The notes under the pieces are model-generated. The model was given only the letters and a program-made list of their open reading frames with translations, was not told the origin of the DNA and ran no database searches. A stretch of DNA of 64,000 nt from NCBI GenBank assembly GCA_963845695.1, contig CAWJTQ010000002.1, positions 1,084,546 through 1,148,545 of the forward strand. The letters are read 5' to 3'. Each line of letters begins with the position of its first letter. The first letter of the stretch is position 1. A program made the translations under genes and the position numbers. This document shows positions 37,184-40,998 of the stretch, piece after piece. This stretch comes from an uncultured Isosphaeraceae bacterium (lineage in GTDB: Bacteria > Planctomycetota > Planctomycetia > Isosphaerales > Isosphaeraceae).

Positions 37184-37597
37184 ATTGCCAGCCCGTCCAC
37201 CGACTCGATCGATCTCGCCAAATCGGCCCGGCATGATTTCTGGCCAGGCTCAATCTTTCATTGTAATGGATCCGGTGGACGGCGAAAGCGGCGCCCGGCG
37301 GAAAGCTCGAGAAGGCTTGGTGAGCGTCTCCAAAGGCGGTGGACAACGCGTCGCGTTTCGTTGATGTGAGTGACCGTCTTAGACTCCGCCGTCCCCTGGA
37401 CCGCTCGTCTCCTGATCAGGCGCCAACCCTCTGATCCCCAATCGATGTCGGGCCTGGGAAAAAGGCGAGAGATGGTCCTTGCCCCGGTTTCTTAGCGGAG
37501 AGAACAGGACGGCAATTGAACTTTTTATCGCCGGGGTCCGGGGCTGGGATGATGGATTGCGGCGAATCCTCGATGCTTCGGCGGATGGGAAGTGACC

Positions 37598-37705
37598 GCA
37601 CGAACGACCTCGTTCAGCAGTGGGGCCGGCTGGAGAGACTTCATAGTTTGGAAAACCGTAATGCCGGCCCCGTCTGCTGCAACGGCTGATTCGGCCCGGC
37701 CAGCG
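37598..37705. repeat. Copy 1 of a roughly 105-bp non-coding direct repeat (about 75% identical to 40253-40358)
   Basis: cgaacgacctcgttcagcagtggggccggctg...gtctgctgcaacggctgattcggcccggccagc aligns with cgaacgaccaagttcagcagcggggccggctg...gtctgctacaacgactcgttcggccggaccacc. Confidence 0.6.
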
Positions 37706-37706
37706 C

Positions 37707-38312
37707 TTAATCATCACTTTCATCCTCCGACTCGTAAACGTCTTGAACCGTAACGAAAAGATAGTTCTCGTCAAGACTATCATCGAACCAAAAGTCAAGT
37801 TCATCTTCTGCATAGTCGAAGCGTAAGTCGTTCGTGACCTCATCCTCAAGATGCAGCAGTTCGTCCTTCGTCAAGTTGGTCCAATCAGGATGGGAGATCC
37901 AGAGATGGTGGAACCCAACCACCTCGTAATCCGACCAAGGGCTGCCGTAAAGATCGGCCAAGTCAAGAGTCTGCACCTTCGTTTCGACGAGGACACGCGC
38001 GAAGGCTTTCCCCCAAAGATCGAAGGTGAATACATAACGCGCATCGGTCGCCTCGGAAGGATTGTACTTCTGCATGTTGAGAAACCGGCCAAACTCCTCG
38101 GCACGGTCGTCCACGGTCGCGTACGCTGAACACATCCGCACGATGCGGATGGTGGCTTCTAGCATCAACTGTGGTTCGTCGGCGCGCAATAGCTGTCCCA
38201 GATGTTCCTGCGGTGATAGCCGCTCGAGGTGTTCCCGAAACATGGCACAGTCATCGGCCCGCGCCGCAGTCCGAAAATCTTGCTCCCACCGGTCTAGAAG
38301 CTCTTCGCTCAT
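37707..38312 (-). CDS. Acidic hypothetical protein (low-GC gene, DE-rich C-terminus)
   Basis: 201-aa ORF from MSEELLDRW. About 53% GC against a roughly 68% background. No recognised domain. Confidence 0.45.
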   Translation of the reverse strand: MSEELLDRWEQDFRTAARADDCAMFREHLERLSPQEHLGQLLRADEPQLMLEATIRIVRMCSAYATVDDRAEEFGRFLNMQKYNPSEATDARYVFTFDLWGKAFARVLVETKVQTLDLADLYGSPWSDYEVVGFHHLWISHPDWTNLTKDELLHLEDEVTNDLRFDYAEDELDFWFDDSLDENYLFVTVQDVYESEDESDD

Positions 38313-38509
38313 GTTCGATTGCCTGCTCTGCCGCATAACGACACAGCTCACCTGCCGGGCCGCCTGCAAGTGCGCTGTGTCTTGGAAAACCAATATGGCG
38401 GCCCGGTCAGCTTCAGCCGTTGTTTCGCCGGGCCCTCTCGCGCTTTGGTTCAGCCTACAGGCGGCTGGCCTGCCGCACTATGAGGGTTCGGCGGCGAGAC
38501 CAATATCGA

Positions 38510-39663
38510 TCAGCGTCGTACGGAAACCCCGGTGGAAGCGAACACAACAACGACTCCACCGCGCGCACGCACTGCCGGGAGAATGTCCTCAGCACGGATG
38601 TGGTCGCCCAGGTTTCGACCGTTCACCACCACGTCCATTGCTGCCGACACCGACAGTTCCACCTCGTTGATTGCCCAGCAAATCGATTCCCAAATCAGCG
38701 GGATGGGGTTTCCGAATACGCCGCCTCCGATCAGGGTCAGCACCACCTTGGGCCGCCCTAACGCCGCCGCAGCCAGGAGCGTTCCCAGGTATGCGGCACG
38801 AAGAAGGGCAGTGCAGATCGGACGATAGTTCGAATCGCCCGCGCTCGCACCGCTGTACCCGCCGCCCGCGAAAGTCGAGGTGAACACCTGGCCGATGCGG
38901 CGGTTGCCCGCCACGGCGCCATCCCAGTTGTAGCCCAAGACCACGGGAACGTCATCGTGGACGCCGACGCGGATGTCCTCGAAGCGTCTTTCGAGATCTG
39001 CGGCAAGGGCCGACCGGTCCGCGATGCCCGAAGAGGTGAGGTAGCCGCTGCGCACCTCCGCGACCCCCGGCGAACAGACCGCCTGGAGCAGGTTGAGTTG
39101 CGGGCCATCGCTCGTCTGAACGAAGCGTCGATCGTCGTCGTCAGGGGCCGCGTAATGCCGCAACAGGGTCCCCGGGAACGCGGAAATCGAAGCCCGCGGC
39201 CCCTGGGTCGGGTCGCTGAAGTAATTTGCGACCGGCGTAAGGTAGGGGCCGGGCGACTCCAGACAGTTGAACTGTGAGGCGACCTGGAACAGTGTCCCCG
39301 GCCCGGTGGCGGCCTGGAGACTGCCGATATCCGTGGCGGGCGATGCTCCGTCGAGCACCCAGAGGCGCACCCGACCGCGCGCGCCGCCTGTCCGGACCGC
39401 GGCGACCTGTTTTCGGAGCGCGCCAATCGAGGGGGTTTCGAAGCGGCCTGCGGGAATGTCGGCGTCCCTGGTTCGCAACGTGCCGGTGCCCGCCGCGTCG
39501 AAATGAAACGAGGTCTCGGGGTGGGCTTGCACTATGGCCTCGATTCGGGCCACCTGACGGCGATCACCAGCGCCGGCTAAGGCCTTGACGGCGGCAACGT
39601 GGGCCGAGAGTTCTTGCAGGAATTGCTGTTCCAGGTTCGGGTGACCGGCCTGCTCTAGCAAGA
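38510..39663 (-). CDS. Hypothetical protein with macrodomain-like Gly-rich motifs (possible ADP-ribose-binding/processing fold)
   Basis: MIELLLEQ start 17 nt after the phosphatase stop. LFQVASQFNCLESPG resembles macro motif 1 (VNAANxxLxxGGG, but lacks the GGG). VVLTLIGGGVFGNPIPLIW resembles the diphosphate-binding loop (ISTGIYGYP). Low-certainty call. Confidence 0.35.
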
Positions 39664-39679
39664 GTTCGATCATGGGATC

Positions 39680-40238
39680 GTTCCTGGAATTAATGCTGAC
39701 CACGAGCCCAGGACCGAACAAACCGCTCCTGATCGCCTTCAAAGGGGTACTGGTTCTTGGGCAGGTCCGCGCGGAGGCGGAGCAGCGCGTCAATCGCTTG
39801 TTGCGCCGTGTGACCCTTAAGGATCAGGTGGCAGGCAATGACCGTACCCGTCCGGCCGTGGCCACCTCAGCAATGCAGATATGTCGGCGACTGCTCTCGC
39901 AGCCCCACGTCGATCATCTCGAGCACTTTTTCCAGGGCCGGCCCAGCAGGGGCGCGAGCATCGGGCAGCGGCACGGGCAGGCACTCGACGACAATCTTGC
40001 GCTCGAGGGCCAACTCCTTTAGCCGCGGCACATAGGGCTCAAAAGGGCGATCGCCGCGGCTTCTTTCGGTTGCCTCCATGAGGCTCAGGACTCGGCGAAT
40101 GCCGCAATCGAGCAGGCCGCGGAGCTTGGCATCAAGCGTCGCAGGATCCTGGTCACCGGGGTAACAGCCGGCGCACAGGAGGTTCTCGTGGATCCAGAAG
40201 CTTTGGGGAAAAGGCTTGACCGCCATATCGACAACCAC
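39680..40238 (-). CDS. Dual-specificity/Tyr phosphatase-like protein with an in-frame TGA at the P-loop Trp position (HC*GGHGRTG)
   Basis: Upstream part CAGCYPGDQDPATLDAKLRGLLDCGIRRVLSLM...YLHC. After TGA (about 39867-39869) the same frame continues GGHGRTGTVIACHLILKGHTAQQAIDALLRLR to TAA at 39680. Confidence 0.55.
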
Positions 40239-40252
40239 CCCTTCAGGAAATC

Positions 40253-40358
40253 AGAGGCGAACGACCAAGTTCAGCAGCGGGGCCGGCTGCAATGACTTCG
40301 TACCAAGAGAAGCCGTCATGCTCGCCTCGTCTGCTACAACGACTCGTTCGGCCGGACC
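40253..40358. repeat. Copy 2 of the roughly 105-bp non-coding direct repeat
   Basis: See 37598..37705. It lies between the stop of ORF 40362..40727 and the phosphatase start. Confidence 0.6.
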
Positions 40359-40361
40359 ACC

Positions 40362-40884
40362 TCAACGATGCATGGCTGCCTTGATGCCAGCTACCTGCGA
40401 TGCGCTGCACCCGAACTCCCGAGCGAGCAGATAGACGTCGGCGTCGCCCGATTCAATCCGCGCCCGCAACTGCGACTTTTCCTCCGCGGCCAGGTCACGC
40501 TGCTTTGGCTCGGGGTACTTCCGCTCTTCAGCTTCGTCCCATTCGGCGAGCATGTAAGATGTCAGGGCGTCATCAAGTATTTCCAGATGGCTCACCGGAT
40601 AACTGGCTTCAAGATAAGCTCGCAGTTCGCCGTCCAACTCATCGAGCGCTTTCTCGGTGGGATCATCCCCGTCTATTTGCAACTCATTGAAAGTGACCTG
40701 CAGGCTGCAATGAAAACTCCGGCTCACTTACCTCGCCAGATTCCGACTCTTCGACAGCTTCAAGCTTGATGATCTGATACTCGGCTTCGAGATACTCACG
40801 CAATTCCTCCAACAATTCCTGCGCGGGCCGCGATCCCGCAAAACGCAACCAAGCCGCGATTACGAAATCGTAGTACTTTGCCAC
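40362..40884 (-). CDS. Acidic hypothetical protein with internal ELxxYLEA duplication and a C-terminal HTH-like segment (low-GC gene; two ORFs, probably one frameshifted gene)
   Basis: ORF 40684..40884 (ELLEELREYLEAEYQI) and ORF 40362..40727 (ELDGELRAYLEASYPV...DVYLLAREFGCSASQVAGI). About 55% GC. Confidence 0.35.
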
Positions 40885-40998
40885 GGCCCACCCCTTCCTC
40901 GCTGAAGTCCTTACTTGGCGCGTATGTATCCAGGCTGTCCGTCAAGCCGGCCAAAACAACACAACTGCAACGTGAACGCAATGTCAACGCAATACAAG

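Follow-up and report, generated by a model that had tools for sequence, protein, structure and literature searches.

Probable integron attC sites delimit a three-cassette cluster lacking an integrase beside a tRNA-Ser gene of an uncultured Isosphaeraceae bacterium

The attC sites (59-base elements) of integrons carry R and L boxes and recombine in an AAC triplet; they are 57-141 bp long, with an unpaired central spacer of 5-6 nt and extrahelical bases at positions 16 and 23/24 that are separated by a 6-bp stem, the distal one being a T that is conserved in the bottom strand (Nivina et al. 2016, PMC5027507). A cluster of two or more attC sites that lacks an integron integrase, with none within 4-10 kb, is termed a CALIN (IntegronFinder; Cury et al. 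2016, PMC4889954), for which loss of intI, rearrangement away from intI and insertion at secondary sites are listed as possible origins (PMC4889954). Planctomycetes integrons and a taxon-specific attC model have already been published (PMC4889954; PMC8352920), the Planctomycetes-specific model being that of Ghaly et al. 2021 (PMC8352920). We analyzed a stretch of 64,000 nt (hereafter, the window) from an uncultured Isosphaeraceae bacterium (contig CAWJTQ010000002.1, positions 1,084,546 to 1,148,545), in which an initial annotation had described a low-GC islet with two acidic-protein genes, a direct repeat after each of them, and a phosphatase and macro-like gene pair in between. We conclude that the repeats, which are 97 nt long, are very probably integron attC sites and that the islet is a three-cassette CALIN next to a tRNA-Ser gene. 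That is, the element is of an already known kind, in a phylum with earlier reports.

A repeat search of the window gave an ungapped 102-nt alignment of positions 37601-37702 with 40258-40359, in which 76% of the bases are identical, and nhmmer E-values for the repeat were 1e-30 to 1e-35; the co-oriented direct repeat is therefore real. The two copies, termed attC A and attC C here, begin 9-11 nt past the stop codon of a minus-strand acidic open reading frame (ORF), where the initial annotation had put them immediately after it, and a 19-nt core common to two copies had 2 matches in the window vs 0.15 expected. The count of two copies was incomplete, as the search also returned a third, more diverged copy at 38335-38436 with 62% identity to copy A. 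This copy (attC B, 38333-38429) sits between the gene of a 387-aa protein and a 201-aa acidic ORF; the phosphatase and macro-like genes do lie between copies A and C, but they have a copy of their own and are therefore not simply bracketed. The minus strand carries every gene and element of the islet, all of them co-oriented. The proposed duplicated module was not borne out, only the attC sites of the two acidic genes being alike. The drop in GC content was confirmed (53.3% in the acidic ORF 37707-38312 and 55.6% in 40362-40884), although the background is the window mean of 63.3% and not 68% as had been given.

The architecture of the element was assessed in an alignment (A4) of 60 non-redundant copies with a pairwise difference >12%. 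R'' (GCCGAAC, positions 1-7) pairs with R' (GTTCGGC, the last 7 positions); 88.6% of the R-box cells were paired, and AAC/GTT was invariant in 60/60 copies. The R boxes are followed by an unpaired spacer of 5 nt on the 5' arm (columns 8-12) and 6 nt on the 3' arm (columns 88-93), the candidate pair 12-88 being unpaired in 32/60 copies. Then come a 3-bp helix, an unpaired base at position 16, six covarying pairs (columns 17-22 with 79-84) and an unpaired base at position 23, where A on the gene strand corresponds to T on the bottom strand. The remainder consists of a 10-bp G+C stem with common G-C/C-G swaps and compensatory changes at 9 pairs, and a poorly conserved loop of ~34 nt; the site length is 94-99 nt across the family. 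RNAalifold independently predicted the inner hairpin from A4; of the 17 pairs in this hairpin, 12 showed compensatory changes. Paired cells amounted to 92.1%, compared with 80.0% after shuffling and at most 46% with slid partners, and the covariation score was 0.264, compared with 0.073 and at most 0.072, respectively; in neither case did any of 500 shuffles reach the observed value. The element thus shares with attC sites an imperfect hairpin with an AAC/GTT R box, a 5/6-nt central spacer, an L box with extrahelical bases 16 and 23 set 6 bp apart, the bottom-strand T at 23, a variable terminal structure and one co-oriented site past each ORF, and the 97-nt sites of the window fall inside the 57-141 bp range.

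The same covariation, which backs a conserved hairpin, would also be expected of a structured cis-regulatory or small RNA, i.e., a 3'- or 5'-untranslated region motif of the flanking genes, as the initial annotation had suggested. Such an RNA would be transcribed in sense with the genes if they form one transcript, and attC hairpins within an mRNA could incidentally affect the expression of the next cassette. We nevertheless regard this explanation as extremely unlikely. Rfam returned two tRNAs only, at the gathering threshold on the whole window and at E<=1 on 37200-41000, so that even at E<=1 the repeat has no family match; Rfam contains no attC family. Over hundreds of copies, each copy is flanked by genes unrelated to those of the others, which fits a recombination site and not a regulon, and the conserved features are those that an integrase reads on DNA (PMC5027507). 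A regulatory RNA would, moreover, leave the linkage to intI unexplained.

Next to the architecture, the distribution of the element supports the attC assignment. A degenerate pattern for the 5' arm matched >120 stretches of the genome collection, mostly from metagenome-assembled genomes (MAGs) of Planctomycetota (Gemmataceae/Gemmatales, Fimbriiglobus, Frigoriglobus, Urbifossiella, Pirellulales, Isosphaeraceae and Planctomycetaceae), and nhmmer detected 252 copies across these loci, of which 172 scored >=40 bits. The arrays were confined to a single strand in 24/24 loci with at least three copies. Copies were spaced 230-2800 nt apart (start-to-start median, 692 nt); the longest inter-copy ORF was on the strand of the element in 86/111 intervals, and ORFs ended a median of ~20 nt before the element. 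L082 contained 14 copies in 8 kb, L045 contained 11, and L046 and L100 contained 10 each. Similarly, a profile of the three window copies found the element in metagenome contigs encoding homologs of the 387-aa protein, directly 3' of that gene and also 3' of unrelated genes. On contig CAVYVK010000011.1 of the Planctomycetaceae MAG MFD03399.bin.2.103, 67 copies were found at 792-904 kb, in seven loci (L078, L082, L046, L045, L100, L022 and L055) that sample 56 kb of the 112-kb span; up to 872 kb the copies are plus-strand, and from 888 kb they are minus-strand. This locus is a single chromosomal cassette array of very large size, or two such arrays that converge. Such very large arrays (67 copies in 56 kb) resemble sedentary chromosomal integrons, and the ~100-nt attC, the high sequence similarity of the sites between cassettes and the long terminal structure recall the Vibrio cholerae superintegron repeats. 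Unlike sedentary chromosomal integrons, the window has three sites only and no integrase, and this attC family is common to several planctomycete families and not to one genus. Strong copies were also present in short contigs whose bins were assigned to Mycobacteriaceae (6 copies), Dehalococcoidia (4) or a Thermoplasmata archaeon (2), and a 5-kb contig from the assembly of a Litchfieldella isolate carried one more (loci L035, L069, L049 and L113); these copies in non-planctomycete assemblies may reflect mis-binning or contamination, or real spread.

IntI homologs were encoded in the same 8-kb loci. In tblastn with an IntI1 sequence that served as a probe only, matches with 43-55% identity were obtained in L013, L087, L048, L071, L011, L060, L007, L023, L064 and L097. 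The proteins of L087 and L013 scored 455.6 and 445.6 bits, respectively, with the NCBIfam model TIGR02249 'integron integrase' (cut-off 265 bits). The integrase is divergent from the array in L013 and L071 and co-oriented with it in L087 and L048, an 'inverted integrase' arrangement that Cury et al. 2016 also mention (PMC4889954).

A long imperfect hairpin just past stop codons, with many copies per genome and, in the window, no integrase, might instead suggest a generic palindrome like repetitive extragenic palindromic (REP) sequences or bacterial interspersed mosaic elements, or a miniature transposable element; at most, it would be an mRNA-stabilizing or terminator-like hairpin unrelated to integrons. 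However, such an origin explains neither strict single-strand arrays at cassette-size spacing nor bona fide integron integrases in the same loci, and it does not explain the exact attC geometry (AAC/GTT, 5/6 spacer, bulges 16 and 23). The element has no target-site duplications and no terminal inverted repeats beyond the R box, and a terminator scan found no T-run. We therefore consider this alternative very unlikely.

Close relatives of the window locus argue further for cassettes. L129 and L130 are two ENA contigs of one locus and contain a 98%-identical block corresponding to window positions 40279-37494, which includes the first ~105 nt (37494-37598) of the spacer that follows attC A. Upstream of this block, both carry genes different from those of window cassette 1, indicating that the first cassette was replaced between close relatives. 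The horizontally acquired cassettes that the initial annotation had proposed are, on the attC reading, literally integron cassettes. Upstream of the phosphatase gene, L129 (4566-4600) and L130 (7982-8002) have a collapsed 35-nt attC without stem and loop, in which R''-spacer-L is joined directly to L'-spacer-R'; this could be a hairpin deletion or a long-read assembly artefact. In L001, the phosphatase-macro-attC unit lies inside a run of ~10 attC-like sites on one strand, each just past a gene end. Orthologues of attC B directly follow the 387-aa gene in L001, L003, L004, L129 and L130, and attC A is 85% identical to attC copies of the Gemmatales MAG loci L105 and L117.

Further upstream of the cluster, L129 contains a 36-nt copy of the tRNA-Ser 3' end, a duplicate of the kind that integration at a tRNA site leaves. 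Together with the position of the cluster against tRNA-Ser(CGA) and its atypical composition, this would fit the remnant of an island that a conventional tyrosine integrase had targeted to tRNA-Ser, with the cassettes as mere cargo and the repeats internal to the island. In the window, however, the surroundings of the cluster lack an integrase, a direct repeat of the tRNA end and further island genes, and the repeat itself would be left unexplained. We judge this origin to be exceedingly improbable; an island is compatible with the attC reading, e.g., one that in the relative may have inserted beside a cluster already present. When metagenomes were scanned with the 179-aa neighbor of the cluster, four loci only were obtained. 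Since these lack tRNA-Ser and their homology begins only at ~37196, the ancestral empty site was not reconstructable from them. Downstream of the shared block, L129 and L130 carry type III CRISPR-Cas genes. A 51-nt stretch downstream of attC A (37491-37541) occurs twice in L129 (7310-7360 and 12983-13033), where the copies bracket a 5.6-kb segment with Cas10 palm, RAMP, Csm2 and Cas_APE2256 genes but do not constitute a CRISPR repeat array. Because type III cas genes follow it in L129, a 35-nt sequence past attC A that ends in GAAAC (37487-37521) was considered as a CRISPR repeat; it was rejected, having a single copy in the window, being absent as such in L129 and forming no tandem arrays.

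A covariance model built from A4 found exactly three strong sites in the window, with 86.2 (attC A), 79.9 (attC C) and 74 bits (attC B, matched at 38333-38428) on the gene strand. Opposite-strand scores were at most ~17 bits (17.2 for attC A and 15.2 for attC C), indicating that the element is strongly asymmetric. The R boxes are GCCGAAT (R'', 37695-37689) and GTTCGTG (R', 37605-37599) in attC A, GCGAAAC and GTTATGC (R' at 38339-38333) in attC B, and GCCGAAC (R'', 40352-40346) and GTTCGCC (R', 40262-40256) in attC C. The predicted crossover was set between G and TT in each R', which places that of attC A between 37605 and 37604, and the cassette spans (Table 1) were derived from these points; the resulting lengths of 1923 and 734 nt equal the repeat-to-repeat spacings found in the repeat search. 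The bottom strands, which correspond to the window plus strand, fold as single-stranded DNA to the expected shape, with -22.4 kcal/mol for attC A (z -3.2), -20.9 kcal/mol for attC B and -19.7 kcal/mol for attC C (z -1.8).

Several points weigh against attC sites and a CALIN in this genome. The three window copies sat in the alignment that trained the covariance model, so that their own scores are not independent. The R box GCCGAAC/GTTCGGC departs from RYYYAAC/GTTRRRY next to the triplet, and the bottom-strand base at position 16 is C where the usual base is G. In addition, attC B has a weak R box and the terminal stem of attC C is partly mismatched and degenerate; judged from these sequences, both may be poor recombination substrates. 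No IntI-like sequence or fragment was found in the 64-kb window by tblastn with IntI1 and the L087 IntI, no attI was recognizable in the interval from tRNA-Ser to cassette 1, and the upstream end of cassette 1 yielded no definable attC half-site, GTTCACG at 40977-40971 being a candidate for its left junction. The arrangement of a complete integron, in which intI and attI adjoin the array, is thus absent from the window. With three sites within 2.8 kb and no intI in the window, where the integrase-free distance around the cluster is 23 kb on one side and 37 kb on the other, the islet is a CALIN by definition.

Reading the repeats as attC sites accounts for the low, heterogeneous GC content, the shared orientation of genes and repeats, the position of the repeats ~10 nt past stop codons, and a near-identical relative with a different neighboring cassette. 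In the mechanism that we propose, the IntI would come from another place in this genome or from an incoming element; it would recognize each attC by its folded bottom strand (the window plus strand) and cut between A and C of the R-box AAC. Recombination of two attC sites would excise a circular cassette of 1923 nt (phosphatase and macro-like protein) or 734 nt (acidic protein), and the excised circle could re-insert at attI or at a secondary GTT site. That the three sites would still be recombined in this genome is an extrapolation, and any route by which the cluster arrived beside the tRNA gene is likewise conjectural.

Table 1. Features of the cassette cluster and its flanks (window positions).
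Feature	Position	Strand	Remarks
tadA-like deaminase	41065-41772	minus	
tRNA-Ser(CGA)	40998-41086	minus	ARAGORN and Rfam; upstream flank of the cluster
Cassette 1	ends at 40262		opposite end somewhere in 40885-40997
Cassette 1 coding region	40362-40884	minus	two overlapping small acidic ORFs
attC C	40256-40352	minus	97 nt; closes cassette 1
Cassette 2	38339-40261		1923 nt; phosphatase and 387-aa gene
DSP-type phosphatase gene	39690-40226	minus	first in cassette 2
387-aa macro-fold protein gene	38510-39673	minus	second in cassette 2
attC B	38333-38429	minus	97 nt; closes cassette 2; missed in the initial annotation
Cassette 3	37605-38338		734 nt; 201-aa gene
201-aa acidic protein gene	37707-38312	minus	cassette 3
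attC A	37599-37695	minus	97 nt; closes cassette 3
Non-coding spacer	37235-37598		~360 nt; in minus-strand order between attC A and the 179-aa gene
Conserved 179-aa gene	36695-37234	minus	

A promoter scan of 37200-41300 found no sigma-70-like promoter vs 1.1 expected, which is weak evidence that the ORFs are promoterless, as ORFs next to attC sites usually are. Outside the cassettes, a 23-nt inverted repeat (41091-41149; 96% complementary, 13-nt loop) immediately 5' of tRNA-Ser extends over the 3' portion of the tadA-like frame. Divergent from the tadA-like gene, the plus-strand gene at 41774-42307 encodes a bacterial product that matches Pfam OGFr_N (opioid growth factor receptor N-terminal conserved region) with an E-value of 3.4e-20.

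The acidic ORF of cassette 3 is a single ORF, as the initial annotation had it, and its 201-aa product is also present in the source annotation. At E<=0.001, its family comprises 229 cluster representatives, with fusions to larger proteins in some cases, and the AlphaFold2 model has a mean predicted local distance difference test score (pLDDT) of 92.7. In contrast, the supposed second acidic gene consists of a 66-aa ORF (40684-40884) and a 121-aa ORF (40362-40727), which are called separately in the source annotation. They overlap by 44 nt (40684-40727) in different frames, and the motif EL..ELR.YLEA.Y is present in each; a single gene with an internal duplication may have been split here by a frameshift. 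The suggestion that the acidic proteins are immunity-like or regulatory found no backing, as they had no match in Pfam, NCBIfam or PADLOC and a PDB structure search gave no informative neighbor for the 201-aa model.

The first gene of cassette 2 matches the Pfam families Tc-R-P (PF22785; E-value 9.6e-17) and PTP-SAK (PF22784; 9.4e-15) with 61.9 and 55.4 bits, respectively, vs a cut-off of 27, which agrees with the previous assignment to a dual-specificity phosphatase (DSP)-type protein tyrosine phosphatase (PTP). Its frame is interrupted, however, by an in-frame TGA (39867-39869) within the P-loop, at the codon after Cys (HC*GGHGRTG), and the predicted product ends at residue 119 (123 counted from an upstream GTG). 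The same codon is TGG (Trp) in L001-L004, L129 and L130, where the P-loop is intact (HCWGGHGRTG). Because all homologs have TGG, including the 98%-identical L129 and L130, the TGA represents a recent nonsense change or a base-call error. Recoding of UGA, as selenocysteine or otherwise, was rejected because every homolog has TGG. Like the DSP-type PTPs of the Tc-R-P and PTP-SAK families, the homologs have a Cys-X5-Arg P-loop, and the scores exceed the gathering thresholds; unlike these, the protein stands alone with ~180 aa and is always paired with the macro-like gene, and the window copy is truncated by the stop. A literature search for PTP-SAK, Tc-R-P and DSP-PTPase found nothing relevant.

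The second gene starts 16 nt past the phosphatase stop and encodes 387 aa; the initial annotation had given a gap of 17 nt and 384 aa. Its macro-like character was supported at the level of the fold. The protein had no match in Pfam, NCBIfam or PADLOC, a PDB sequence search was empty, a look-up of the window protein in a gene-position index gave no entry, and none of its >1000 homologs has a Pfam domain. With the AlphaFold2 model (pLDDT 91.2), Foldseek returned the poly(ADP-ribose) glycohydrolase (PARG) of T. curvata (3sih; E-value 6.5e-8), that of D. radiodurans (5zdc), and then YmdB and other macrodomains, many macrodomains being matched at probability 1.0. The protein contains an AGGGYSG loop and a GGGVFGNP loop that is invariant in homologs; from its sequence, the latter resembles a diphosphate-binding loop, and binding or hydrolysis of ADP-ribose is putative. 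A macrodomain core and a GGG loop are shared with bacterial PARG (DUF2263; 3sih and 5zdc) and MacroD/YmdB. The protein differs from them in having only 12-14% identity and a TM-score of 0.35-0.42 on the query, a value attributable to insertions and an N-terminal extension of ~100 residues. It also lacks the PARG signature GGG-X6-8-QEE, with no QEE after AGGGYSG in the protein itself or in a 29-sequence consensus. The fold being similar and the signature absent, we describe the protein as macro-fold and PARG-like, not as a demonstrated PARG.

The two genes were paired in every context examined, i.e., in Planctomycetota, Hydrogenedentes and Piscinibacter. In the Piscinibacter genome and the Hydrogenedentes MAG, the reading frames of the pair overlap or nearly abut, and the neighbors encode nSTAND, DUF2726 and RecD/UvrD proteins, or AbiEii with a transposase; no attC of the planctomycete type was found at these loci. 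In one metagenome lineage (L003 5857-7213 and L004 2535-3891), an Nmad3-domain protein (PF18754) and a 205-aa protein are encoded ahead of the pair and one attC lies after it; a second attC was not detected in the vicinity. Recent work has described small defence systems on cassettes of mobile integrons (bioRxiv 10.1101/2024.07.02.601719). It is a tentative and rather unlikely idea that the pair is an undescribed two-gene conflict, defence or counter-defence module acting on ADP-ribose or phospho-ADP-ribose adducts or signals; if this is true, its travel as an integron cassette in planctomycetes makes the idea testable in the same way as the reported defence cassettes.

With the attC assignment, an unexplained repeat becomes part of a well-understood mobile-gene system, and the exact cassette boundaries allow the enclosed genes to be regarded as units that move independently. 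One homogeneous attC family is common to several lineages of planctomycetes, some of whose MAGs contain very large arrays. The cluster, which has no integrase, also shows a recent replacement of a cassette and the apparent decay of a gene. Its practical value lies in the cargo: the phosphatase/PARG-like pair and the 201-aa protein are conserved, confidently folded and uncharacterized. Short cassettes are easy to clone and screen, and the phosphatase and PARG-like cassette is the most promising lead.

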